Assembly: GCF_003790525.1 (NCBI RefSeq)
Contig: NZ_CP033635.1
Reading direction: 5' to 3' (one strand)
DNA: 64,000 nucleotides
From: Escherichia coli
Lineage (GTDB): Bacteria; Pseudomonadota; Gammaproteobacteria; Enterobacterales; Enterobacteriaceae
Made by a program: the position numbers and the translations under genes. Shown piece after piece: positions 294 through 56,141 of the stretch; position 1 is the stretch's first letter, and every line of letters starts with the position of its first letter. A model generated the notes under the pieces. It saw nothing but the letters and a program-made list of their open reading frames with translations. It was not told where the DNA came from and did not search any database.

Positions 294-2263
294 CACAACT
301 CGCCATTGGCAAACCCACTCCCCTCGGCGCGCATTACGACGGTCAGGGCGTCAATTTCACACTTTTCTCCGCTCATGCCGAGCGGGTAGAGCTGTGTGTC
401 TTTGACGCCAATGGCCAGGAACATCGCTATGACTTGCCAGGGCACAGTGGCGACATTTGGCACGGTTATCTGCCGGATGCGCGTCCGGGTTTGCGTTATG
501 GTTATCGCGTTCATGGCCCCTGGCAACCCGCCGAGGGGTATCGCTTTAACCCGGCGAAGTTGTTGATTGATCCTTGCGCGCGGCAAATTGACGGGGAGTT
601 TAAAGATAACCCGCTGCTACACGCCGGTCATAATGAACCTGACTATCGCGACAACGCCGCCATTGCGCCGAAATGCGTAGTGGTGGTTGATCACTATGAC
701 TGGGAGGATGATGCCCCGCCGCGCACGCCGTGGGGCAGCACCATCATTTATGAAGCCCATGTCAAAGGATTAACGTACCTGCACCCGGAGATCCCGGTCG
801 AGATCCGTGGCACTTATAAAGCCCTGGGGCATCCGGTGATGATCAACTATTTGAAACAGTTGGGCATTACCGCGCTGGAACTGCTGCCGGTGGCGCAGTT
901 TGCCAGCGAACCACGCCTGCAACGTATGGGTCTAAGTAACTACTGGGGTTATAACCCGGTGGCGATGTTTGCGCTGCATCCGGCGTATGCCTGCTCCCCA
1001 GAAACGGCGCTGGATGAGTTTCGCGATGCAATCAAAGCACTGCATAAAGCGGGTATCGAAGTCATTCTTGATATCGTGCTCAACCATAGTGCGGAACTGG
1101 ACCTCGACGGTCCGTTATTCTCTCTGCGTGGGATCGACAACCGTAGCTATTATTGGATAAGAGAAGACGGCGATTATCACAACTGGACCGGTTGTGGCAA
1201 CACGCTCAATTTGAGTCATCCGGCGGTAGTGGATTATGCCAGCGCTTGCCTGCGTTATTGGGTAGAAACCTGCCACGTCGATGGTTTCCGCTTTGATCTG
1301 GCGGCAGTCATGGGCCGTACGCCAGAGTTCCGTCAGGATGCGCCGTTGTTTACCGCTATCCAGAACTGCCCGGTGCTCTCGCAGGTGAAGTTAATTGCTG
1401 AACCGTGGGATATTGCTCCTGGTGGTTATCAGGTGGGAAATTTCCCGCCGCTGTTTGCCGAGTGGAACGATCATTTCCGCGATGCTGCCCGTCGTTTCTG
1501 GCTTCATTATGATTTGCCTCTGGGGGCGTTTGCCGGGCGTTTTGCTGCCTCCAGCGATGTTTTTAAACGTAATGATCGTCTGCCGAGTGCCGCGATTAAT
1601 CTCGTCACCGCGCATGACGGTTTTACGCTTCGCGACTGCGTTTGCTTCAACCATAAACACAATGAAGCAAACGGAGAAGAAAATCGCGACGGGACCAACA
1701 ACAATTACAGTAACAATCATGGTAAAGAAGGGTTAGGCGGTACTCTTGACCTGGTTGAACGGCGTCGCGACAGCATTCACGCCCTGTTAACAACGTTGTT
1801 GCTCTCCCAGGGTACGCCGATGTTACTGGCCGGTGACGAACATGGTCACAGCCAGCATGGCAATAACAATGCCTACTGTCAGGATAACCAATTAACCTGG
1901 TTGGACTGGTCGCAGGCAAGCAGTGGTTTAACCGCATTTACCGCCGCGTTAATCCATCTGCGCAAGCGCATTCCCGCTTTGGTGGAGAATCGCTGGTGGG
2001 AAGAAGGCGACGGCAATGTCCGTTGGCTAAATCGATATGCTCAACCTTTAAGCACGGATGAGTGGCAAAACGGGCCGAAACAGCTGCAAATTCTGCTCTC
2101 GGATCGCTTTTTGATCGCAATTAACGCCACGCTTGAGGTAACAGAGATTGTTTTACCTGCTGGGGAGTGGCACGCCATTCCCCCATTCGCTGGAGAGGAT
2201 AACCCAGTGATTACGGCTGTCTGGCAGGGACCTGCACACGGATTGTGTGTGTTCCAGAGATGA
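290..2263 (+). CDS. glgX: glycogen debranching enzyme (657 aa)
   Basis: Full-length ORF; GH13 catalytic motifs (GFRFDLA, EPWD); position between glgB and glgC. Confidence 0.95.
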
Positions 2264-2280
2264 TAAAAAAGGAGTTAGTC

Positions 2281-7591: not shown

Positions 7592-9109
7592 ATGGAAAGA
7601 ATAATGCAAAACGGAAAATGGATTTTGACCTCGCTGGTAATGACTTTTTTTGGCATCCCCATACTGGCGCAATTTTTGGCAGCGGTTGTTGCCATGCTGG
7701 GGGCCGGGCTTGCCGCTATTTTTGATGTTTGCAATTTACTCTTTACGCCAACAATTTATCTTCTACTCAACGTCTTTATGCTGACGCTGGGCGCATTACT
7801 GCTATTTTTCTCTGGGCGAGTGTGGGCGGGCGATAGCGCACCAGAAAACAGAGAAATAGCCGCCTGGCGACAATGTCTTTTTTTAGTTCCCGCTTTATTA
7901 ACCCTGGTTGGCTGGATAATCACGCTACATCTGGCAGATTATCAATTTCGCCAGATGGTTTCAGGTTGGTTGGCAAACCTTATGCTTCCCTGGTTGGGCG
8001 TTTTTACAGTCTCATTCGTCGGTGGTGAGTACTGGTGGATAGTCATTATTCCCGTTGGCGCGCATATCAGTTTTTCACTGGGATACGGCTGGCCGACCAG
8101 ACACCCTTTAACCGGCACCTCCGGTCTACGTTGCCGTAATTTACTTCTGTTCATTCTTCTCTTACTGGGTATTGTCGCTGGTTATCAGGCTTATTTATAT
8201 AAACAGCTTAATCCCGGCGTCGGTGTGCGTGAAAATATTGATACCTGGGCCTGGCGACCCGATAAACTTAATAATCAACTGACGCCACTGCGTGGTAAAC
8301 CACAAATTCAATTTACGCAAAACTGGCCGCGACTCGATGGCGCTACGGCGGCGTACCCCATTTATGCCTCTGCATTTTATGCATTAAGTGTAATACCAGA
8401 GGATTTTCACGTTTGGGATTATCTGGATAACTCTCGTACGCAAGAAGCATATAACAAAATCGTTAAGGGCGATGCTGATATTATTTTCGTGGCGCAACCT
8501 TCCGATGGGCAAAAAAAACGCGCTGAGAAATCGGGCGTCACTTTGCTGTACACGCCATTTGCCCGTGAAGCGTTTGTTTTCATCGTCAATGCGGATAATC
8601 CGGTTAATTCCCTGACTGAACAACAAGTGCGTGACATTTTTAGTGGCGCAATTACCAACTGGCGCACGGTTGGCGGTAACGATCAGGAGATCCAGACCTG
8701 GCAACGCCCGGAAGACTCTGGCAGCCAGACAGTGATGCAATCGCAGGTCATGAAAAATGTCCGCATGATCTCGCCGCAGGAAACCGAAGTGGCAAGCATG
8801 ATGGAGGGAATGATTAAAGTCGTTGCCGAATACCGTAATACAAACAACGCAATAGGCTACACCTTCCGCTATTACGCAACACAAATGAATGCCGATAAAA
8901 ATATAAAACTGCTAGCGATTAACGGTATTGCACCGACTGCGGAAAATATTCGTAACGGCAAATATCCGTATATCATCGATGCCTTTATGGTAACGCGGGA
9001 AAATACTACGTCAGAAACACAAAAACTGGTCGAATGGTTTTTAACGCCGCAGGGACAGAGTCTGGTGGAAGATGTGGGCTATGTGCCGCTGTATCCAACA
9101 ATGAAATAA
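7592..9109 (+). CDS. membrane-anchored PstS-like (phosphate-binding-protein fold) protein: N-terminal polytopic TM domain plus C-terminal PBP domain
   Basis: 505-aa ORF (a second ATG at 7604 has a better-spaced GGAAAG RBS). Residues 1-210 carry about 5-6 hydrophobic helices; the C-terminal 270 aa show PstS-like motifs (AAYPIYASAFY, RPEDSGSQTVM, AIGYTFRYYA) that align with E. coli PstS (FPAPVYAKWA, DGSGTSFVFTSY, AIGYVEYAYA). Possible -10 TATAAT at 7568-7573. Confidence 0.7.
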   Translation: MERIMQNGKWILTSLVMTFFGIPILAQFLAAVVAMLGAGLAAIFDVCNLLFTPTIYLLLNVFMLTLGALLLFFSGRVWAGDSAPENREIAAWRQCLFLVPALLTLVGWIITLHLADYQFRQMVSGWLANLMLPWLGVFTVSFVGGEYWWIVIIPVGAHISFSLGYGWPTRHPLTGTSGLRCRNLLLFILLLLGIVAGYQAYLYKQLNPGVGVRENIDTWAWRPDKLNNQLTPLRGKPQIQFTQNWPRLDGATAAYPIYASAFYALSVIPEDFHVWDYLDNSRTQEAYNKIVKGDADIIFVAQPSDGQKKRAEKSGVTLLYTPFAREAFVFIVNADNPVNSLTEQQVRDIFSGAITNWRTVGGNDQEIQTWQRPEDSGSQTVMQSQVMKNVRMISPQETEVASMMEGMIKVVAEYRNTNNAIGYTFRYYATQMNADKNIKLLAINGIAPTAENIRNGKYPYIIDAFMVTRENTTSETQKLVEWFLTPQGQSLVEDVGYVPLYPTMK

Positions 9110-9134
9110 CGCTCGAGAGAAAGGAATCAGCGCA

Positions 9135-10127
9135 ATGAATAAATTCACCGGTGTTTTACTATTAGGTACGGCGCTACTGGCGGGATGTGTCGACCGGGAA
9201 GGGTACTATAACAGCGTCAGGGAAGAAGACAGCCATGGACTGACGTCTCTGCGGGGGCAACCTGAATTACGTTACAACGATGATTGGTCAAGATGGCCGA
9301 GAGTGTACGGCGCTACAGCCTTATACCCGCTGTATGCCTCCGCGTATTATGAATTAGTACCCGAGCCAAAAGATAAGGATCGAACCTCGCTGGCCTGGCA
9401 GGCGTATGGTTTGCAACAAACCCGAACAGCTGAAGCCTACGATAGTCTGATTAAGGGTACCGCGACGGTTATTTTTGTTGCACAACCGTCGGAAGGACAG
9501 AAAAAACGTGCAGAAGAAGCAGGTGTTAAACTCAAATATACCGCTTTCGCCCGCGAAGCCTTTGTCTTTATCGTTGATATCAAAAACCCGGTTAATTCAC
9601 TTAGCGAACAGCAGGTCAAAGACATTTTTAGCGGTAAAGTGAGTCGCTGGAATAAAGTGGGCGGCGGTGACGAAAGTATAAAAGTCTGGCAGCGGCCAGA
9701 AGATTCTGGAAGCCAAACGGTTATGAAGGGACTGGTTATGCAAGATACTCCAATGCTGCCAGCCAAAAAATCCACTGTTATCGATCTTATGGGCGGTTTA
9801 ATTACCGAAGTCGCCGACTACCAAAATACACCATCTTCTATTGGATACACCTTCCACTATTACGTCACACGTATGAATGACAATATGCTCAAAATGCGCA
9901 AACAGATCAAACTGCTGGCTATAAATGGCGTTGCACCTACAGAGGAAAATATCCGTAACGGCACTTATCCGTACATAATTCATGCTTATATGGTGACGCA
10001 CGAAAACCCTACGCTGGAAACGCAGAAATTCGTCGACTGGTTTTTAAGCCCGCAGGGACAGCAATTGGTAGAGGATGTGGGCTATGTGCCGATTTATGAC
10101 GCATCATCCGAATCATCAGGACAATAA
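9135..10127 (+). CDS. PstS-like substrate-binding lipoprotein, tandem paralog of the upstream gene
   Basis: 330-aa ORF; lipoprotein signal MNKFTGVLLLGTALLAGC (lipobox LAGC); mature part colinear with and clearly similar to the C-terminal domain of ORF 7592-9109 (ALYPLYASAYY, RPEDSGSQTVM, SIGYTFHYYV). Confidence 0.7.
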   Translation: MNKFTGVLLLGTALLAGCVDREGYYNSVREEDSHGLTSLRGQPELRYNDDWSRWPRVYGATALYPLYASAYYELVPEPKDKDRTSLAWQAYGLQQTRTAEAYDSLIKGTATVIFVAQPSEGQKKRAEEAGVKLKYTAFAREAFVFIVDIKNPVNSLSEQQVKDIFSGKVSRWNKVGGGDESIKVWQRPEDSGSQTVMKGLVMQDTPMLPAKKSTVIDLMGGLITEVADYQNTPSSIGYTFHYYVTRMNDNMLKMRKQIKLLAINGVAPTEENIRNGTYPYIIHAYMVTHENPTLETQKFVDWFLSPQGQQLVEDVGYVPIYDASSESSGQ

Positions 10128-10129
10128 AG

Positions 10130-10730
10130 ATGAATAAAATCAGACTTTATATTCCTCCGTTAATTCTTGGTTTTGTTATTGTGCCGTTGTTGGTGTGGCC
10201 GACGGTGGTTGCTCTGGCTGCTTGTGTTATCACGCTGAGTTTTATGGGAGAAATACTGTTCTCTATCCCGCTCATGTTCAGGCGTATTTCACTTCTGGAA
10301 TTCCAACTTGGGTTATTGGCTGAATATGCACTTTTTTTTTCTGTGCCATGTGTTGCGTTGGTTGGCAATTTTCTTGCAGAGCTCAATCTGAACTGAAAAG
10401 CAGACTCCATTGTTGGTTGGTATTTGCACCAGTTTATTTCTGGTTGCTCCTGTGGAATATCATTTTCTATGTCGCGCCAGCGCAAATTGCTTTGCTGGAA
10501 AATATGCGCAATTTCTTTCTGACCATTGTCTGGTTACCCCTGAATTTTTTCAATTTGGGTCTCAGCCGTGGACTGACTTTATCGGTCCGATAAGCGCCCA
10601 GCTTGGTTTTGCATTGGGATATTATTGCCAGTGGCGTAGCAAAAATAGAAGTCAGAGGAAGAAGTGGGGCGAGTGGGTAATGTGTCTGAGTTTTGTTACG
10701 TTGGGTATGATTGCGTGGGCTTTGCGGTAA
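10130..10730 (+). pseudogene. small integral membrane protein gene split over three reading frames (likely frameshift-inactivated), translationally coupled to the upstream PstS-like gene
   Basis: Three overlapping hydrophobic ORFs in three different frames (10130-10396, 10348-10593, 10410-10730). A T9 homopolymer at 10332-10340 sits exactly where restoring one T would join frame 1 to frame 2; a second one-base shift is needed before 10593 (a T6 run lies at 10545-10550). ATG 10130 is 2 nt after the upstream stop. Confidence 0.45.
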
Positions 10731-10855
10731 TTCCTTGAATCAAAAAGTAGGTCAGATTGTTGACGAAGTGCGCTTTGTTTATGCCGGATGCTGCGTGAAC
10801 GCCTTATTTTGTCTACAAAATCATGCAAATTCAATATATTGCATAAACCACGTAG

Positions 10856-10880
10856 GCCTGATAAGCGTAGCGCATCAGGC
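10856..10880. repeat. REP (repetitive extragenic palindrome) element, followed by a T7 run
   Basis: gcctgataagcgtagcgcatcaggc is a typical enterobacterial REP palindrome; T-run at 10883-10889 could terminate plus-strand transcripts. Confidence 0.5.
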
Positions 10881-12450: not shown

Positions 12451-12561
12451 GCTGCCCTCATTCACTTTCGTTAAAGTTCATAAATGTTCGTTATCGAACA
12501 TATTAGCAAAGAATCGCGCTTTGGGTAACATTGAAAAAACATTTTAGAGTGATATGTATAA

Positions 12562-12966
<405 letters not shown>

Positions 12967-12998: not shown

Positions 12999-13841
<843 letters not shown>

Positions 13842-13857
13842 TTCCAGGGATTTAGAA

Positions 13858-17610: not shown

Positions 17611-18630
<1,020 letters not shown>

Positions 18631-28843: not shown

Positions 28844-30335
<1,492 letters not shown>

Positions 30336-31681: not shown

Positions 31682-34002
31682 TAATGGCAATCACCGGTGG
31701 TGCTGGCTGCGCAGCAACTGCTTACCGACTTGCGGGTTGCCAGCAGTTCGATATCCACCCGGCTACGCGCGCGGCGCAGCAGACCGATAACCACGATGTT
31801 AAACAGGATAACCGCCAGAATGCACACCAGGCTGTAAGTTGGGTGCTGACTGTAGCTGGCGACCTGATAGAACAATGTTGCCAGTGAGTAAGCGATATTC
31901 AGCCCCCACAGGATGGAGAAGCCCATCCAGCCACGGCTTGATTCACGGGCGATAGCCCCCATCACCGAGATGCACGGTACATACAGCAGGACGAAAATCA
32001 GGTAGCTGTATGCGGCAGCTGCGCTACCGAATTTCTGATCCATCACGCCCATCGCCCCGGTACCCATTTCGCCGTCGCCTTTGCTGGCTTCAATGGGGTT
32101 CATCAGTACGCTAAGGCTGAAGGTGTCTTTCAGGCTCTGCCAGGTTTCATCTATCGCACTGAACAGCTCTTCACCGAGGTTAAACTCTGCCGGATTGAAC
32201 TCTTCGTCCTGAATATTTTCTGCGGTGTAGAGGGTGTTGAGCGTACCCACTACCACTTCTTTCGCCATGGCACCTGTAAACAGGCCAACCGTTGCCTGCC
32301 AGTTATCTTCATGCACGCCAATTGGCTTGAAGACCGGGGTGATCACCCGGCTGACGGACGCCAGCGCCGAGTCGTTGATGTTATCGACGATTTTCCCGCT
32401 CAGCGAGAAGCTGTTGAAAGCGCTCAGGAAAATGCTGACGATGATAATCACTTTACCAGCACGCAGAACGAAGCCTTTCAGACGCTGCCAGGTCTGGATA
32501 ATCAGGCTTTTAACGTGTGGTACATGATAGACCGGCAACTCCATGACAAACGGCGTCGCTTCACCGCGCATGATGGTGTACTTGAGCATCAGGCCAGTCA
32601 GCACCGCCATCACGATACCCAGCATATACAGCGAGAAGACCGCCAGCGCACCGTTCTGCCCGAAGAAAGCAGCCGCAAATACGGCGAAGATAGCCAGACG
32701 CGCGCCGCAGGACATAAACGGTGCCATCATGATGGTCATCAGACGTTCACGCGGTGCATCAAGCGTACGTGCGCCCATTACCGACGGTACGTTACAACCG
32801 AAACCAACGATCAGCGGTACAAAGGATTTCCCCGGCAAGCCCAGCGCCTGCATCAGACGGTCCATCACAAACGCCGCACGCGCCATATATCCGGAGTCCT
32901 CGAGGAAGGAGAGGAACAGGTACATCATGCCGATCTGCGGCACCAGTGGCAGCACGGTGTTAATACCGCCGCCCAGGCCCTGGGCGAGGAAGATAGTCAG
33001 CCAGTCCGGGAAGTGGAGCGTGTAGCCAATCCACTGAATACCATGCACAAATAGCGCCACGGAGCCGACGTCAAACAGCGGCTGTAACGCCCCGCCGATG
33101 TTGATAGCCAGCAGGAACATCAGGTACATCACAAAGAGGAAAATCGGCAGACCGAGGAAACGGTTGAGCACGATTTTATCTACCGCAGTGGTGAAACGGC
33201 TGGGTTCTGCCGTCAAGGTGTTGCTTACCACATCACAGATAGCAGCAATGCACTGGTAACGCGCATCGGCAATGTGCAGCGCCGGATCGTCCATCTCATT
33301 ACGCAGACGGGCGAGGGCGGCATCAAGATGCTGCGACGCTTCACCGGCGTAGGCGCGGCTGTAGATATCGCCTTCCAGCATTTGCAGACCCAGCCAGCGA
33401 CGTTGTTTCAGCGGGATGTCGGAAGGCATCACTTTTGCCAGTGAATCTGCTTCGTTGAGTAGCGGCTGTGCGTAATGCACCAGTTCCACATTCTCGTTAG
33501 CTTTATAGCGATCAATCGCCAGCTTGAGCGCTTCAATACCGCGACCACGGGTTGAAACCAGCGGGATCACCGGGCAGCCAAGACGCGCCGACAGAGCATC
33601 AATTTCAATACGAATATTTTGCTTCTCGGCAATGTCGAGCATGTTCAGCGCCACGATGCAGGGAATGCCGAGTTCCAGCAGTTGCAGCGTCAGGTACAGG
33701 TTACGCTCAAGGTTAGACGCATCCACCACGTTAATCAGCAGGTCGGCGTCGCCACTCAGAATATAGTGACAGGCGATTTGCTCATCGAGCGAGGTCTGCG
33801 ATGAGATGGTGGTCAGAGAATAGGTGCCAGGCAGGTCCACCAGGGTGACCTGATGATCGGTGGTGGAGAATTGCCCTTCTTTACGTTCGACGGTAACGCC
33901 AGCCCAGTTACCTACACGCTGACGTGCGCCAGTGAGCTGGTTAAATAAGGTTGTCTTGCCAGAATTTGGATTACCAATTAAGCCAATGGTTAATTTTTTC
34001 AT
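31681..34002 (-). CDS. feoB: ferrous iron transporter FeoB (773 aa)
   Basis: N-terminal G-domain (GNPNSGKTT) plus a polytopic membrane domain; start trimmed to [10 protein letters not shown]. Confidence 0.95.
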
Positions 34003-34018
34003 TGTTGTTATCACCGTA

Positions 34019-37578: not shown

Positions 37579-37805
37579 CTCGTTGATTCCCTTTGTCTGT
37601 TTGATAATGCGCACATTGGGTATAACGTGATCATATCAACAGAATCAATAATGTTTCGCCGAATAAATTGTATACTTAAGCTGCTGTTTAATATGCTTTG
37701 TAACAATTTAGGCTGAAATTCATACCAGATTTAGCTGGTGACGAACGTGAGCTTTTTTAAGAATACACGCTTACAAATTGTTGCGAACCTTTGGGAGTAC
37801 AAACA

Positions 37806-39877: not shown

Positions 39878-39908
39878 AAACGGGAGGTGAAGGTGCCTCC
39901 CGTTTTTA
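39878..39908 (+). terminator. rho-independent terminator of ompR-envZ
   Basis: Hairpin cgggagg tgaaggtg cctcccg followed by T5; the stop codon of the minus-strand ORF 39906-40202 lies inside the T-run. Confidence 0.65.
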
Positions 39909-40202
39909 GATTGTTTTCAATTGATTGATAATGAAAGGATTCGCTTGCAAAAGCAGGAGCAATTTTCGGGGTGCTCCGGTAGGCTGACGGCGTTTGGTTT
40001 CCCAGCTTTTGACCAGGTCATAACTTACCCCTACGGCGACAGCAAAATCTTGCTGACGTAAACCCGTTGCTTCACGGATCGCTTTTACATCGATTTCGCT
40101 AAAAGTATGGACGTGCTCTGGTTCTGGCGTTTCTTCACCCTTTTCGATGCGTACCATTTCTTCTGCGCTGGCAAGAAGATCAGCAAATAATTCATCTTTC
40201 AT
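39906..40202 (-). CDS. putative antitoxin, helix-turn-helix (XRE / HigA-2-like) DNA-binding protein (98 aa)
   Basis: Small acidic ORF immediately downstream of a toxin-like gene; central-to-C-terminal segment GLRQQDFAVAVGVSYDLVKSWETKRRQPTGAPRKLLLLL resembles an HTH antitoxin module; absent from the compact envZ-pck junction I expect in E. coli K-12. Confidence 0.6.
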   Translation of the reverse strand: MKDELFADLLASAEEMVRIEKGEETPEPEHVHTFSEIDVKAIREATGLRQQDFAVAVGVSYDLVKSWETKRRQPTGAPRKLLLLLQANPFIINQLKTI

Positions 40203-40260
40203 CTGTTTTCAATGCCTCCGTTGACATTTCGGCCATGGTGGAATTTGTGGAGCTTCAACA

Positions 40261-40578
40261 TTAAAGCAGCTTCTCGGACAATAGTTTCAATGCCTTTCTT
40301 TGTTCTTCTGTTAAATCATCCTGTTCATTTTTAGGATAAATCAACGCCAGATAAATTCGGCCATTGCGTGTTACGTTGTAATAAATTATCCGAGTGCCAC
40401 CCCGTTTCCCCATTCCAGAACGGTTCCAGCGAATTTTTCTAAAACTGCCTGTGCCTGCGATAATGTCACCGGCAGTGGGATCTTGAATGAGTAGTTCCTG
40501 AAAAGCCCGGAACTCATCATCAGGTAGCAATAACTGGCGGCGTTTGCTAAATCCTTGTAGTTCAATAAAGGTGAACAT
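40261..40578 (-). CDS. putative type II toxin, RelE/ParE superfamily (HigB-2 / Gp49-like), 105 aa
   Basis: Signature GTGSFRKIRW...GKRGGTRIIYY...YLALIYPKNEQDDLTEEQ closely matches my recollection of HigB-2/Gp49-family toxins; toxin-first gene order with a 58-nt gap to the downstream HTH gene; AT-rich relative to flanking core genes. Confidence 0.6.
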   Translation of the reverse strand: MFTFIELQGFSKRRQLLLPDDEFRAFQELLIQDPTAGDIIAGTGSFRKIRWNRSGMGKRGGTRIIYYNVTRNGRIYLALIYPKNEQDDLTEEQRKALKLLSEKLL

Positions 40579-42315: not shown

Positions 42316-42433
42316 TTCACTGCTCCTTAGCCAATATGTATTGCCTGAATAGTAAAGTCTTTTTGGGGGTGTTAACCGCGACAAGGCTCATAGATTTACG
42401 TATCTGGAGAAATTCATATTTGACAAAAAACTC

Positions 42434-45430: not shown

Positions 45431-45454
45431 AATCATCTCTCTTGCAGGTGACAG

Positions 45455-46535: not shown

Positions 46536-46599
46536 GAGGGAAATCTCCAGAGTGAAGCAATTTGCGCGACAGGGTAGCATAACCTGCCGCGCAAACGTG

Positions 46600-49782: not shown

Positions 49783-52335
49783 TCAGAACAATTCCTGTGC
49801 CTCGCCATTATCGATAATGGTCGTTCCCACCTCGTGCACCGCCTGTTGTGTCGGCTGCGTACCTTCGATGAAATACTCTTCGCGGCTGTTGCCACCATTA
49901 GCTAACTGCCCGGTGCTGCGATCGATATTCACCGTCACAATACCCGGCGGCGGCGTCAGCGGCTGCTCCGGCACACCTTCAAGAACGGCTTTCATATAAG
50001 CGTCCCATGCAGGCTGGGCACTCTTGGCACCGCCTTCGTAACCTGAGATCTGATCTTTAATCGCTCCAGAAGCCGTTGTATGACCGAGATTACGACGGTG
50101 ATCATCAAAGCCAATCCAGACCGAGGTCACAACGCCCGGACCGTAACCCGAGAACCACGCATCTTTCGAACTGTTAGTGGTACCCGTTTTTCCGCCTATA
50201 TCATGCCGTTGTAAATCACGACCTGCTCGCCAGCCAGTACCCTGCCAGCCTGGTTCACCAAAAATATTGGTGTTCAAGGCACTCTTAATCAGGAATGCCA
50301 GCGGTGTGTTGATGACGTGCGGTGCGTACTCCTGCGCGCCAGTCTTCGCCACTAACGCCTGATTTGCCTGCTCCAGCTGCGGCATTGGTACAGAAACATT
50401 CTGCTGCTCGCGGGAGATAGCGACATCTTCAACATCGTTATTTTCCAGAACGTTCGATTTCTGCGTATCACCGTAAATCACCGGAATATCGCATTCCGGG
50501 CAGGCTACTTTCGGTTTCGCTTCGAAAATCACGCCGCCCTGATCGTTTTCAATTTTGCTGATAAACCACGGGTCCACCAGGAAGCCGCCGTTCGCCATGA
50601 CCGCGTAGCCACGCGCCACCTGCATTGGGGTGAAGGACGCTGAACCCAGCGCCAGCGATTCGGTGTGGACAATGTTTTGTGCCGGGAAGCCGAAGCGTTG
50701 CAGATATTCTGCAGCGTAGTCGACGCCCATCGCCCGCATTGCGCGTACCATCACCACGTTTTTCGACTGACCCAGCCCCTGACGTAAGCGAATTGGACCA
50801 GCATATTGTGGCGGCGAGTTTTTCGGCTGCCAGTCAGAACCGGCACCTGCGTCCCAGCGAGAAATTGGCACATCGTTCAACATACTTGCCAGCGTCAGAC
50901 CTTTATCCATCGCCGCGGTGTAGAGGAACGGTTTGATGTTGGAACCCACCTGACGCAGTGCCTGGGTGGCGCGGTTAAACTTGCTCTGATTGAAATCAAA
51001 GCCACCGACCAGCGCCATAACGGCACCGTTTTGCGGATTGATCGACACCAGCGCCGAGTTCACTTCCGGCACTTGTGCCAGCCACCATGCATCGCCAACC
51101 TGACGAACCCAGATTTGCTGACCCGTTTGCAAAACATCGGTCACTTTACGCGGCGTCGGTCCCTGCTGAGTATCCGAACGGTAAGGACGCGCCCAGCGAA
51201 CGCCTTCCATACTCAATGCGACGGTCGACCCGTCCGCCAGCATCGCCGTCGCTTCCTGAGGATTGGCGCTGGTGACTGCGGCAGGCAGCAGAGGACCATA
51301 GGTCGGCAGCGCCTTCAACGTATCGGTAATCTTGTTGTTATCCCACGCCGATTCGCCCACTTTCCACAGCACATTTGCCGGGCCGCGATAGCCGTGGCGC
51401 ATGTCGTAGTCCAGCACGTTATTACGTACTGCCTGCTGTGCGGCCTGCTGTACTTTGCGGGTGATGGTGGTGTAAATGCGATAACCGTCTTCATAGGCAC
51501 TTTCGCCATAACGGTTATACATCTCCTGGCGCACCATTTCGCTCAGGTACGGCGCAGAGAAAACAATCTCCGGCGCGTGATAGTTAGCGTTAATCGCCTC
51601 AGTGTGTGTCTGATCGAACTGTTGTTGGGTGATATACCCTTCATCCAGCATCCGCGACAGTACGACGTTACGCCGCGCGACGGCACGATCCATTGAGTAG
51701 AGCGGATTAAAGGTGGAAGGCGCTTTCGGCAGCCCGGCTATCACCGCCATTTCGTTCAGCGTCAGTTGGTCGACCGTTTTACCGAAATAGACTTGTGCCG
51801 CAGCACCGACACCATAGGCGCGGTAACCGAGGTAAATCTTGTTCAGATAAAGCTCGAGGATCTCGTCTTTCGTCAGCAACTGTTCAATGCGAATCGCGAG
51901 GAAGACTTCCTTAATCTTACGCATCAGCGTGCGTTCTGGACTGAGGAAGAAGTTTCTCGCCAGCTGCTGGGTAATGGTACTCGCCCCTTGTGACGCGTGG
52001 CCGGAGAACAGCGCCACACTTGCCGCACGGAAGATCCCCACCGGGTCAACGCCGTGATGCTCGTAGAAGCGGCTGTCTTCCGTCGCGATAAAGGCTTTCA
52101 CCATCTCCGGCGGGATTTGATCCAACGTAACCGGAATACGACGTTTCTCACCGTATTGAGCAATCAGCTCGCCATCGGCGCTGTAAATCTGCATCGGAAT
52201 TTGCAGGCGAACATCTTTTAATGTCGCCACATCCGGCAGTTGTGGCTCGATGTAGCGGTATAGGCCATAAATCGAGCCTGCTCCCAGCAGAATGCAACAG
52301 ACTGCAAGGATCAAAAAATACTTTACGAACTTCAC
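49783..52335 (-). CDS. mrcA: penicillin-binding protein 1A (850 aa)
   Basis: Glycosyltransferase and transpeptidase motifs (SxxK ...SNIKPF..., KTGTT); N-terminus at a GTG codon (VKFVKYFLILAV) rather than the upstream ATG at 52359 used by the ORF track. Confidence 0.9.
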   Translation of the reverse strand: MKFVKYFLILAVCCILLGAGSIYGLYRYIEPQLPDVATLKDVRLQIPMQIYSADGELIAQYGEKRRIPVTLDQIPPEMVKAFIATEDSRFYEHHGVDPVGIFRAASVALFSGHASQGASTITQQLARNFFLSPERTLMRKIKEVFLAIRIEQLLTKDEILELYLNKIYLGYRAYGVGAAAQVYFGKTVDQLTLNEMAVIAGLPKAPSTFNPLYSMDRAVARRNVVLSRMLDEGYITQQQFDQTHTEAINANYHAPEIVFSAPYLSEMVRQEMYNRYGESAYEDGYRIYTTITRKVQQAAQQAVRNNVLDYDMRHGYRGPANVLWKVGESAWDNNKITDTLKALPTYGPLLPAAVTSANPQEATAMLADGSTVALSMEGVRWARPYRSDTQQGPTPRKVTDVLQTGQQIWVRQVGDAWWLAQVPEVNSALVSINPQNGAVMALVGGFDFNQSKFNRATQALRQVGSNIKPFLYTAAMDKGLTLASMLNDVPISRWDAGAGSDWQPKNSPPQYAGPIRLRQGLGQSKNVVMVRAMRAMGVDYAAEYLQRFGFPAQNIVHTESLALGSASFTPMQVARGYAVMANGGFLVDPWFISKIENDQGGVIFEAKPKVACPECDIPVIYGDTQKSNVLENNDVEDVAISREQQNVSVPMPQLEQANQALVAKTGAQEYAPHVINTPLAFLIKSALNTNIFGEPGWQGTGWRAGRDLQRHDIGGKTGTTNSSKDAWFSGYGPGVVTSVWIGFDDHRRNLGHTTASGAIKDQISGYEGGAKSAQPAWDAYMKAVLEGVPEQPLTPPPGIVTVNIDRSTGQLANGGNSREEYFIEGTQPTQQAVHEVGTTIIDNGEAQELF

Positions 52336-52454
52336 TGGAAATTTCCCATTTAGTTTCATTTGGGCAGTTTATAAACAAACGCGCGGTAGTATAAAGGCAA
52401 GCCAGACGCATTGATATACCCGTCAGAGTGACGGGTGATAAGGAGATCATCACA

Positions 52455-53773: not shown

Positions 53774-54197
53774 CTGGTGGTTCGCCGCATCACCCCGCCT
53801 CCGCCAGCTTTGCTGGGCATTCTGGTTGATGATGTTAGTTACGCTCATTTTTCTGTCATCGACACACCAGGAAGAGAGCGACGCATTAATTCGACTACGG
53901 GCGAGTCATCACCAGCAGTGGGCCGCACTGTATCGCCTGGTAGACACCACTTCCTTCAGCGAAGAAAAAACGCTGCCCTTTTCGCCACTGGATTTTCAGT
54001 TGCCCGGCGCGCAACTGGTTTCCTGGCATCCATCCGCGCAGGGAGGTGAGTTGGCGTTGAAAACGCTGTGGGAAGCAGTGCCGTCGGCATTTACACGGCT
54101 GGCAGAGCGCAACGTCAGCGTGAGCCGTTTTTCGTTAAGCGTGGAAGGTGATGATCTTTTGTTCACGCTACAACTGGAGACGCCGCATGAGGGGTAA
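53757..54197 (+). CDS. hofO: HofO (PilO-like), 146 aa
   Basis: Overlapping ORF in conserved operon position. Confidence 0.75.
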   Translation: MDMLFDWWFAASPRLRQLCWAFWLMMLVTLIFLSSTHQEESDALIRLRASHHQQWAALYRLVDTTSFSEEKTLPFSPLDFQLPGAQLVSWHPSAQGGELALKTLWEAVPSAFTRLAERNVSVSRFSLSVEGDDLLFTLQLETPHEG

Positions 54198-54591
54198 ACG
54201 CTGGTTGTTGGCAGGTATTGCATTGTGCCTTTTAACCGGTATGCGTGACCCTTTTAAACCGCCGGAAGATCTATGCCGGATTAGCGAACTTAGCCAGTGG
54301 CGCTATCAGGGGATAGTAGGGCGAGGCGAGCGCATCATCGGTGTAATAAAAGACGGGCAAAAGAAATGGCGACGGGTGCAGCAAAACGATGTGCTGGAAA
54401 ACGGCTGGACAATTTTACAGCTGACGCCAGACGCACTAACGCTGGGAACCGGAACAAACTGCGAACCGCCACAATGGTTGTGGCAACGGCAAGGAGATAC
54501 AAATGAAGCAATGGATAGCCGCACTACTGTTGATGCTGATACCCGGCGTACAGGCGGCAAAGCCGCAAAAAGTGACACTGATGGTGGATGA
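54187..54591 (+). CDS. hofP: HofP (PilP-like lipoprotein), 134 aa
   Basis: MRGKRWLLAGIALCLLTGM...; start trimmed from track ORF 54148. Confidence 0.7.
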   Translation: MRGKRWLLAGIALCLLTGMRDPFKPPEDLCRISELSQWRYQGIVGRGERIIGVIKDGQKKWRRVQQNDVLENGWTILQLTPDALTLGTGTNCEPPQWLWQRQGDTNEAMDSRTTVDADTRRTGGKAAKSDTDGG

Positions 54592-55741: not shown

Positions 55742-56141
55742 ACAGCCGTAAAAGCGGTAATGTTTTTACGCTGAACGTGTTTCATCTATTTGACGCGCGC
55801 AGGTATTTAGCATACAAGGAGTACCGATTTGAGAGTTGGTGCTCTTCGCTGCCTGCGTTCCATGATGATGATTTATCATTCAGGCGGCATTTTGCTGTCT
55901 TTTTTACGCTAATCTTACCCGGTGATTTATCGCCAGAGCGGTGGTAGCAAGGCAGCGCGCTTGCAGCGACCAGATATGCAGAGGGATGGGTGATTTATTC
56001 AGTTGCCAAACCCGCTGGAGTATTGAGATAATTTTCAGTCTGACTCTCGCAATATCTTATGAGGTTTCAGTTCATGTCCTGCGGCGCTCTCTGAGCGAAG
56101 CGGGTTTATCATTAACGAATAGTCTTAGTAGTACCGAAAAA

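Follow-up and report, generated by a model that had tools for sequence, protein, structure and literature searches.

Where does translation of mrcA begin? In the window analysed here, the whole stretch of 64,000 nt of Escherichia coli DNA, a mechanical rule that begins each ORF at the first ATG, GTG or TTG following an in-frame stop gives mrcA (PBP1a) as an ORF of 858 aa on the minus strand (49783..52359), which has an ATG start and reads MKLNGKFPVKFVKYFLILAV..., and 24 nt inside this ORF lies a GTG from which the N-terminus reads VKFVKY. A preliminary description of the window considered this GTG the most likely start of mrcA and named 14 further genes whose ORFs begin too early, all of them regarded as artefacts of the ORF track and not as biology.

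As reference for the window we used the SMS-3-5 chromosome (NC_010498.1, reverse complement, 4 mismatches), and reference starts were taken from its RefSeq PGAP annotation and from curated K-12 MG1655. In RefSeq SMS-3-5 the start of mrcA is at record position 3729660, i.e. window position 52335, and mrcA of strain YP3 is annotated at the same GTG. The same gene of K-12 MG1655 (b3396, NP_417855.4; 3522871..3525423, 2553 nt giving 850 aa) is likewise arranged divergently with hofM, has the same GTG start and an in-frame ATG 24 nt upstream, and its protein shows a few amino-acid differences elsewhere from that of the window, none of them at the start. The 850-aa product of the window is identical to WP_121831956.1, carries the Pfam domains Transgly (6.8e-67), PCB_OB (1.8e-33) and Transpeptidase (2.2e-25), and has the class A PBP layout of N-terminal membrane anchor, GT51 transglycosylase, OB-like insert and transpeptidase, with the hydrophobic stretch FLILAVCCILLGAGSIYGLY coming after the KFVKY segment. 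The nearest solved structures are PBP1a chains, and since PDB entries of PBP1a homologues are constructs without the N-terminus, they are uninformative on the start.

With these annotations and the comparison across species that follows, we consider it very probable that mrcA is translated from GTG 52335 (-), and the 24 nt from the upstream ATG (52359) to the GTG would be leader RNA and not coding sequence. The sample comprised 80 Enterobacterales species, from Escherichia to Yersinia, Serratia and Pantoea, and a conservation profile was made over 81 sequences. The GTG is invariant (80/80 species), and the sample is not biased to GTG, because the first scan pattern, if back-translated with ATG, could not have found these loci. 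The Shine-Dalgarno (SD)-like motif TGGGAAA in front of the GTG gives an anti-SD duplex of -4.2 kcal/mol, and its T, G, G, G, A and A are each conserved in at least 90-99% of the 81 sequences. No SD match was found before the upstream ATG, where anti-SD pairing is nil. In absolute terms the SD before the GTG is moderate only.

The upstream codon behaves quite differently across the same sample. At -24 there is no start codon in 37/80 species, and a start-type codon with open frame is found in only 43/80 (ATG in 22, GTG or TTG in 21); it is ATA in Klebsiella pneumoniae and TGA in K. oxytoca, and in K. oxytoca and Buttiauxella the upstream ATG is shifted out of frame. The start-type fraction (54% of species) is above the random-codon expectation because the TG at -23/-22 is conserved while the first base varies freely, with A, G, T and C all seen. 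An in-frame stop falls inside the 24-nt extension in five of the 80 species. These observations bear on the view that the 858-aa form is the sole product, starting at ATG 52359 as in early GenBank-style annotations and in some public entries. ATG is the commonest start codon and the ORF is open, but a protein conserved from the GTG on, an ATG absent from most of the 80 species, the codons of the two Klebsiella species, the in-frame stops, the missing SD, a non-coding pattern of substitution, and contradiction by both RefSeq and K-12 leave this view highly improbable.

The substitution pattern separates the two segments further. Along the profile, the promoter block is followed by a variable leader (-24..-14, the least conserved stretch in the 81 sequences), then by conserved TGGGAAA, a variable spacer, and finally the invariant GTG with 15 nt. 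Minor-allele fractions by codon position are 0.176/0.228/0.136 in the 24-nt extension, a non-coding pattern with no third-position excess, and 0.065/0.034/0.221 in mrcA codons 7-31, where the excess is present. Just behind the GTG almost no synonymous change is seen, with codons 2-5 invariant and two positions of codon 6 each changed in a single species. Within E. coli, variation is useless for testing the extension: of 5,426 records, 5,425 are at least 99% identical over the 171-nt start region, with the extension and the whole intergenic region invariant. The sole outlier, YP3, lacks mrcA codon 4, downstream of the GTG, through an in-frame deletion.

A start downstream of the GTG has also been deposited, in one entry (BED38630.1), which would begin at the TTG of codon 8 of the 850-aa form (52314) and give 843 aa. 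Among the species codon 8 is TTG, TTA or TTC and is thus not conserved as a start; moreover, this form would drop the conserved lysine-rich KFVKY segment ahead of the membrane anchor, and there is no suitably spaced SD. Its probability is next to nil, and we rejected it, as we did an 858-aa form made exclusively.

A mixed case, in which both ATG and GTG are used where the ATG at -24 is kept (Escherichia, Salmonella, Citrobacter, Kosakonia, Phytobacter), would yield a minor 858-aa PBP1a with a cytoplasmic tail 8 residues longer. PBP1b (mrcB) exists as alpha and gamma proteoforms from alternative in-frame starts, and mrcA resembles it in belonging to the class A PBP genes and in offering two candidate starts in the same frame close to its 5' end. 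However, the upstream candidate of mrcA is without SD and not conserved, and there is no evidence of two forms. Where a proteoform pair of the PBP1b type is taken to mean that each start has its own ribosome-binding determinants and is evolutionarily maintained, mrcA does not show one, as most species have lost or replaced the ATG or carry it out of frame. The open frame with ATG in 22/80 species and with GTG or TTG in 21 more would fit such dual use, as would an A/U-rich context 5' of the ATG, which could permit SD-independent initiation, and 858-aa forms deposited for Salmonella, although as predictions. Against this, the -24 codon drifts among ATG, GTG, TTG, CTG and non-start codons, and the longer form has been discarded by curated annotation. 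Changes in the extension are mostly non-synonymous and frame-breaking, hence selection does not act on any longer form. Overall we regard dual initiation as unlikely.

Dual initiation also touches the mrcA-hofM intergenic region, where a highly conserved block contains two -10-like hexamers and a palindrome (Table 1). This block is a probable promoter or regulatory region common to mrcA and the divergent hofM. When the intergenic region was scanned for sigma-70 promoters, the conserved block was not called and the only hit was a weak site inside the hofM coding sequence; TATAAA was missed because the scanner requires 'T at position 6'. If TATAAA were a promoter, the transcript would begin ∼2 nt before the ATG and be near-leaderless. 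A broader version of this idea, which we likewise think improbable, is that in the AUG-keeping lineages (Escherichia, Salmonella, Citrobacter, Kosakonia) a minor 858-aa PBP1a might be made from a transcript starting ∼2 nt upstream of the AUG at TATAAA, and that the invariant GUG, the 15 near-invariant nt and the 58-nt block might together belong to an undescribed mechanism controlling PBP1a synthesis. The sole ground for the near-leaderless message is the conserved TATAAA with its predicted TSS near 52361; the AUG itself is not conserved.

Returning to the GTG as the start of mrcA, RefSeq, curated K-12, the SD pattern and conservation in 80 species all bear out the placement made in the preliminary description. 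Look-ups in published data sets returned no rows for mrcA, aroK or yrfG in the supplements of TetRP, TRAINSPOTTER N-terminomics and Salmonella riboproteogenomics, no mention of mrcA in the Ribo-RET main text, no matching rows for an mrcA TSS in the Cappable-seq and SMRT-Cappable-seq supplements, and nothing relevant when the literature was searched for papers that state its GTG start explicitly. From the comparative and annotation-based support we infer that in this strain ribosomes initiate exclusively at the GTG.

The same question was asked of the 51 RefSeq CDSs in the window, where an ORF was counted as over-extended if ATG, GTG or TTG lay in frame 5' of the reference start without a stop in between. 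Compared with RefSeq starts, 18/51 genes begin too early under the longest-ORF rule. Simulation with first-order Markov upstream sequence gave a chance expectation of 28.1 ± 3.6 over-extended ORFs of 51, and 18 or fewer were reached in 0.4% of simulations; the observed count is below random expectation. Over-extension is not commoner than chance and follows from the ORF rule itself. Very probably the rule would simply pick up, by chance, start-like codons that stand in frame within 5' untranslated leaders, and the explanation given for mrcA would hold for the other 17 genes. Longest-ORF over-extension of these starts is an ordinary annotation artefact, already known, and the reference annotations carry the right starts. 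The well-known over-prediction corrected by PGAP and curated K-12 has, as here, a start-like codon upstream in frame with no stop between, a true start downstream with an SD, and an extension that is not conserved; we see no substantive difference from it, apart from a frequency (18/51) under the random expectation of 28.

Table 1. Features of the mrcA start region and over-extended ORFs in the window (SD values: reference start versus upstream candidate)
Feature	Coordinates	Strand	Remarks
mrcA (PBP1a) CDS	49783..52335	-	RefSeq and K-12; begins with GTG, 850 codons before the stop
GTG start codon of mrcA	52333..52335	-	annotated in SMS-3-5, K-12 and YP3; 80/80 Enterobacterales loci
mrcA codons 2-6 (AAG TTC GTA AAG TAT)	52318..52332	-	minor-allele fraction 0.000/0.002/0.002
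Shine-Dalgarno-like TGGGAAA	52342..52348	-	7-nt spacer to mrcA GTG (8 nt from GGGA core)
mrcA over-extension, 24 nt (MKLNGKFP)	52336..52359	-	read as putative 5' untranslated leader; no SD at ATG; not conserved as coding
Intergenic block 5' of mrcA, highly conserved	52360..52417	-	conservation profile, 81 sequences
-10-like TATACT	52393..52388	-	within conserved block
-10-like TATAAA	52373..52368	-	within conserved block; predicted TSS near 52361
Palindrome GTTTATAAAC	52376..52367	-	within conserved block
hofM over-extension, 27 nt	52428..52454	+	GTG 52428, reference ATG 52455; SD -9.8 vs -2.3
hofP over-extension, 39 nt	54148..54186	+	GTG 54148, reference ATG 54187; SD favours reference
aroK over-extension, 201 nt	55941..56141	+	GTG 55941, reference ATG 56142
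yrfG over-extension, 45 nt	46536..46580	-	ATG 46580, reference ATG 46535; SD -6.4 vs -1.7
hslO over-extension, 6 nt, 2 codons (ATG ATT ATG)	45431..45436	-	absent from preliminary description; SD favours reference
pckA over-extension, 69 nt	42316..42384	-	TTG 42384, reference ATG 42315; SD -8.3 vs -1.7
ompR over-extension, 15 nt	37791..37805	+	TTG 37791, reference ATG 37806; SD -6.8 vs -0.1; K-12 length equal
greB over-extension, 36 nt	37579..37614	-	GTG 37614, reference ATG 37578; SD and K-12 length
feoB over-extension, 12 nt	34003..34014	-	GTG 34014, reference ATG 34002; SD -9.0 vs -4.8; K-12 length
feoC over-extension, 9 nt	31682..31690	-	TTG 31690, reference ATG 31681; SD -9.9 vs -1.1; K-12 length
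gntX over-extension, 63 nt	29528..29590	-	TTG 29590, reference ATG 29527; SD -5.8 vs -1.8; K-12 length
rtcA over-extension, 3 nt, one codon (ATG ATG)	17611..17613	+	absent from preliminary description; K-12 length
glpR over-extension, 51 nt	13807..13857	+	TTG 13807, reference ATG 13858; SD -5.3 vs -3.8
glpE over-extension, 24 nt	12616..12639	+	TTG 12616, reference ATG 12640; SD and K-12 length
glpD over-extension, 15 nt	12451..12465	-	GTG 12465, reference ATG 12450; SD -6.1 vs -0.8; K-12 length
PstS-family gene over-extension, 9 nt	7592..7600	+	ATG 7592, RefSeq start non-canonical ATA 7601; absent from preliminary description; SD favours reference
glgC over-extension, 36 nt	2245..2280	+	GTG 2245, reference ATG 2281; SD AAAGGAGU -8.2 vs -6.4; K-12 length

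All 15 genes named in the preliminary description are among the 18, with no false positives, and their reference annotation supports the reading as artefacts of the ORF track; the list was incomplete in that hslO, rtcA and the PstS-family gene had been missed. The 14 named besides mrcA agree with RefSeq and K-12, except that for glpR, a frameshifted pseudogene in K-12, the agreement is with RefSeq alone. SD strength and K-12 gene lengths point the same way: the SD is stronger at the reference start than at every upstream candidate in 16/18 genes, and K-12 lengths are identical for all but glpR. The exceptions in SD strength are aroK, whose reference start has no SD, so that SD does not favour it, and rtcA, where SD cannot separate the two adjacent ATGs.

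For six genes conservation could be added, and reference starts are conserved in 90-100% of species as against 1-11% for ORF-track starts (34% in hslO). The respective counts are 57/63 and 7/63 for yrfG, 78/79 and 4/79 for hofM, 32/33 and 1/33 for hofP, 75/75 and 2/75 for aroK, and 59/60 and 1/60 for pckA; in hslO, annotated with 292 aa in K-12, the reference ATG is conserved in 69/70 and the start at -6 is kept in 24/70. As judged from sequence comparison, cross-species conservation confirms the reference start in yrfG, hofM, hofP, aroK and pckA, and less cleanly in hslO. Annotation and SD served as support for the other 11 genes, namely glgC, glpD, glpE, glpR, gntX, feoB, feoC, greB, ompR, rtcA and the PstS-family gene.

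Once the starts are corrected, mrcA and the divergent hofM are separated by 119 bp (52336..52454), not 68 bp, and both the mrcA SD and the promoter-like conserved block are placed in non-coding sequence. The 201-nt 'extension' of aroK is the hofQ-aroK intergenic region, and the gntX extension, which reaches into the 5' end of the divergent bioH, disappears together with the overlap. The GTG of mrcA, a weak start codon under strict conservation, probably keeps PBP1a synthesis low. The biology of these genes is unchanged by the corrected starts, and the practical effect is on the reading of regulatory sequence.

In the ORF listing, mrcA, the gene for PBP1a, is an 858-aa frame with an ATG start whose protein begins MKLNGKFPVKFVKYFLILAV. 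The minus-strand sequence around this start reads ctgcccaaATGaaactaaatgggaaatttccaGTGaagttcgtaaagtat, which places a GTG at 52335, exactly 24 nt inside the ORF. The preliminary description had proposed this GTG as the start, and annotation bears it out: RefSeq starts mrcA of SMS-3-5 at the GTG at record position 3729660, the curated K-12 MG1655 gene (b3396, 3522871..3525423, 850 aa, NP_417855.4) starts at this GTG as well, and mrcA of strain YP3 is annotated from the same GTG. The RBS spacing check points the same way, as the best anti-Shine–Dalgarno (anti-SD) duplex before the GTG is UGGGAA (-4.2 kcal/mol, 7-nt spacer) and no anti-SD pairing at all was found before the upstream ATG. We are highly confident that mrcA translation starts at the GTG; since this is the K-12 start and curated annotation already uses it, the point is right and useful as housekeeping, already known, and not new biology. 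Variation among E. coli in the start region is nil, chains of PBP1a homologues in the PDB are without the N-terminus, and no rows for mrcA, aroK or yrfG were found in the supplementary data of the TetRP, TRAINSPOTTER and Salmonella riboproteogenomics papers.

A scan with one genome per species gave 80 Enterobacterales mrcA loci (82–98% identity over the first 300 residues), including Escherichia albertii, Citrobacter, Klebsiella, Enterobacter, Kosakonia, Cedecea, Pantoea, Serratia and Yersinia. MKFVKYFL was the only listed scan pattern spanning the start and, if back-translated with ATG, is unable to find these loci, hence the sample is without GTG bias. The codon aligned to the E. coli GTG was GTG in 80/80 species. 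At -24, counted upstream of the GTG, 43 species had a start-type codon in an open frame (ATG 22, GTG 10, TTG 11) and 37 lacked a usable in-frame upstream start, the codon there being ATA, ATT, ACG, ACC, TTC, GCT, CTG, TGG or others. Five species (K. oxytoca, K. spallanzanii and three Serratia) had an in-frame stop within the 24-nt extension, and in K. oxytoca and Buttiauxella the upstream ATG was shifted out of frame by one base. Start-type codons are frequent at -24 because TG at -23/-22 is 70–90% conserved while the first base is freely A, G, T or C, and a true start would not be expected to behave in this way.

In the conservation profile, -24 to -14 was the least conserved part of the start region, TGGGAAA at -13 to -7 was conserved with a variable spacer to the GTG, and the GTG with the following 15 nt was invariant or near-invariant. 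Together with the conserved block at -82 to -25, this is the pattern that a promoter, leader, SD and start arranged around the GTG would be expected to give. By codon position, the mean minor-allele fractions were 0.176/0.228/0.136 in the extension, with third-position excess absent, and 0.065/0.034/0.221 in codons 7–31, the classical coding signature. Predicted extension peptides vary mainly non-synonymously (MKLNGKFP, MPLNGKSP, MTLNGKSP, VKPNGKSP, LTLNGKSQ and others), and the 'NGK' common to them falls on the SD motif.

MrcA carries the Pfam domains Transgly, PCB_OB and Transpeptidase. The exact 850-aa sequence is WP_121831956.1, and the 858-aa form of the window's MrcA was absent from a collection of 15 billion proteins. 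In its 90% cluster most entries are 850 aa long; a small number from Salmonella (MTLNGKSPVKFVKY) have 858 aa, and a single E. coli entry, of 843 aa, begins at the TTG of codon 8; thus all three starts have been deposited by different pipelines. The codon-8 start was rejected, as many species have TTA or TTC at this codon and the conserved KFVKY segment before the membrane anchor would be lost. A minor 858-aa PBP1a proteoform, which the Salmonella entries and the open upstream frames would suit and the missing SD pairing and interrupted frames would not, or an undescribed regulatory role of the ultra-conserved region flanking the start, seems to us very improbable.

Between mrcA and hofM, a 58-nt block (-82 to -25) is 90–100% conserved in the 80 species, more than the mrcA coding sequence downstream of codon 6. 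This block is putatively a promoter, a transcription-factor site or both, serving mrcA or the divergent hofM; a simple promoter scan of the intergenic region did not call it.

Except for four single-base differences, the window is the reverse complement of E. coli SMS-3-5 NC_010498.1 3717995..3781994 (window coordinate w is record coordinate 3781995 - w), with 51 complete protein genes by RefSeq, glgX through yhfZ. Given these differences and the exact match of its MrcA to WP_121831956.1, the window comes from a close relative of SMS-3-5 and not from that strain itself. Taking the first ATG, GTG or TTG after an in-frame stop as the mechanical rule and comparing it with all 51 RefSeq CDSs, we found 18 over-extended ORFs. 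All 15 genes named in the preliminary description are among them, and it had missed hslO, rtcA and a PstS-family gene. Gene lengths agree with curated K-12 for every shared gene except glpR, which in K-12 is a frameshifted pseudogene.

Over-extended ORFs, with SD energies (kcal/mol) and species counts at the two starts
Gene	Extension (nt)	SD, reference	SD, ORF track	Start codon at reference start	E. coli ORF-track start kept
glgC (AAAGGAGU)	36	-8.2	-6.4		
PstS-family gene	9				
glpD	15				
glpE	24				
glpR	51				
rtcA	3				
gntX	63				
feoC	9	-9.9	-1.1		
feoB	12				
greB	36				
ompR	15	-6.8	-0.1		
pckA	69	-8.3	-1.7	59/60	1/60
hslO	6			69/70	24/70
yrfG	45			57/63	7/63
mrcA	24				
hofM	27	-9.8	-2.3	79/79	4/79
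hofP	39			33/33	1/33
aroK	201			75/75	2/75

The SD match at the reference start beats every upstream candidate in 16 of the 18 genes, the exceptions being rtcA, where one SD is common to two adjacent ATGs, and aroK, whose reference ATG is without an SD. Six genes within the 10-kb flanks of the 80 mrcA loci were compared across species; for the other 11, annotation and SD matches point to the reference starts. Of all the cases, the two-codon hslO extension (ATG ATT ATG) is the least clear, and since its -6 start codon is kept in about a third of species, use of the upstream ATG is dismissed less firmly than for other genes. For the PstS-family gene (502 aa, WP_122991685.1) the RefSeq start is a non-canonical ATA at 7601, with ATGs 3 nt downstream (7604) and 9 nt upstream (7592), and this RefSeq start itself looks doubtful.

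With composition-matched first-order Markov sequence in place of the 240 nt upstream of each gene, 28.1 ± 3.6 of 51 genes were expected to be over-extended; the 18 observed fall towards the bottom of this null model (18 or fewer in 0.4% of simulations). Over-extension is not above chance and is an expected by-product of the ORF rule. In-frame upstream starts are, if anything, scarcer in real leaders than in the random sequence, a deficit that could reflect either selection against spurious starts or leaders rich in stops.

Two strain-specific insertions relative to K-12 were observed. In the glpD–glgP interval, which in K-12 contains nothing but the remnant yzgL, the window holds two PstS-family phosphate-binding genes and a frameshifted ORF. 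Next to this ORF, which is downstream of glpD, is a match to the ES036 (CssrF) sRNA (43.6 bits), the sole Rfam match in the window at or above the gathering threshold. The pckA–envZ interval holds a toxin gene of the RelE/ParE family with a partner of the NadS family. The 89-nt hofP/hofQ overlap is the same in RefSeq and K-12; the signal-peptide-like hofQ N-terminus MKQWIAALLLMLIPGVQA backs the hofQ start, so the long overlap would involve the hofP 3' end.

Window coordinates of features
Feature	Position	Strand
mrcA ORF as listed	49783..52359	-
mrcA extension	52336..52359	-
mrcA codons 2–6	52318-52332	-
58-nt block	52360-52417	-
Invariant TTTATACTAC with -10-like TATACT, in block	52395-52386	
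10-bp palindrome GTTTATAAAC overlapping -10-like TATAAA, in block	52376-52367	
TATCAATG, in block	52416-52409	
hslO extension	45431-45436	-
PstS-family gene start	7592-7606	+
glpD–glgP insertion	~7600-10730	
ES036 (CssrF)	10817-10859	+
pckA–envZ insertion	39906-40578	
hofP/hofQ overlap	54503-54591	+
Differences from SMS-3-5	539, 12443, 19359, 51605	

On mrcA mRNA, ribosomes most probably start translation at the GUG, aided by the GGGAA motif, and the eight 'extra' codons would be 5' leader. Codons 2–6 (AAG TTC GTA AAG TAT) are almost invariant in the 80 species, synonymous sites included, and, set against the normal third-position variation of codons 7–31, this suggests an RNA-level constraint on the translation-initiation region. 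GUG initiates translation less strongly than AUG. Since one transition would convert GTG to ATG, yet 0/80 species have done so, retention of the GTG suggests that selection may favour modest PBP1a synthesis.
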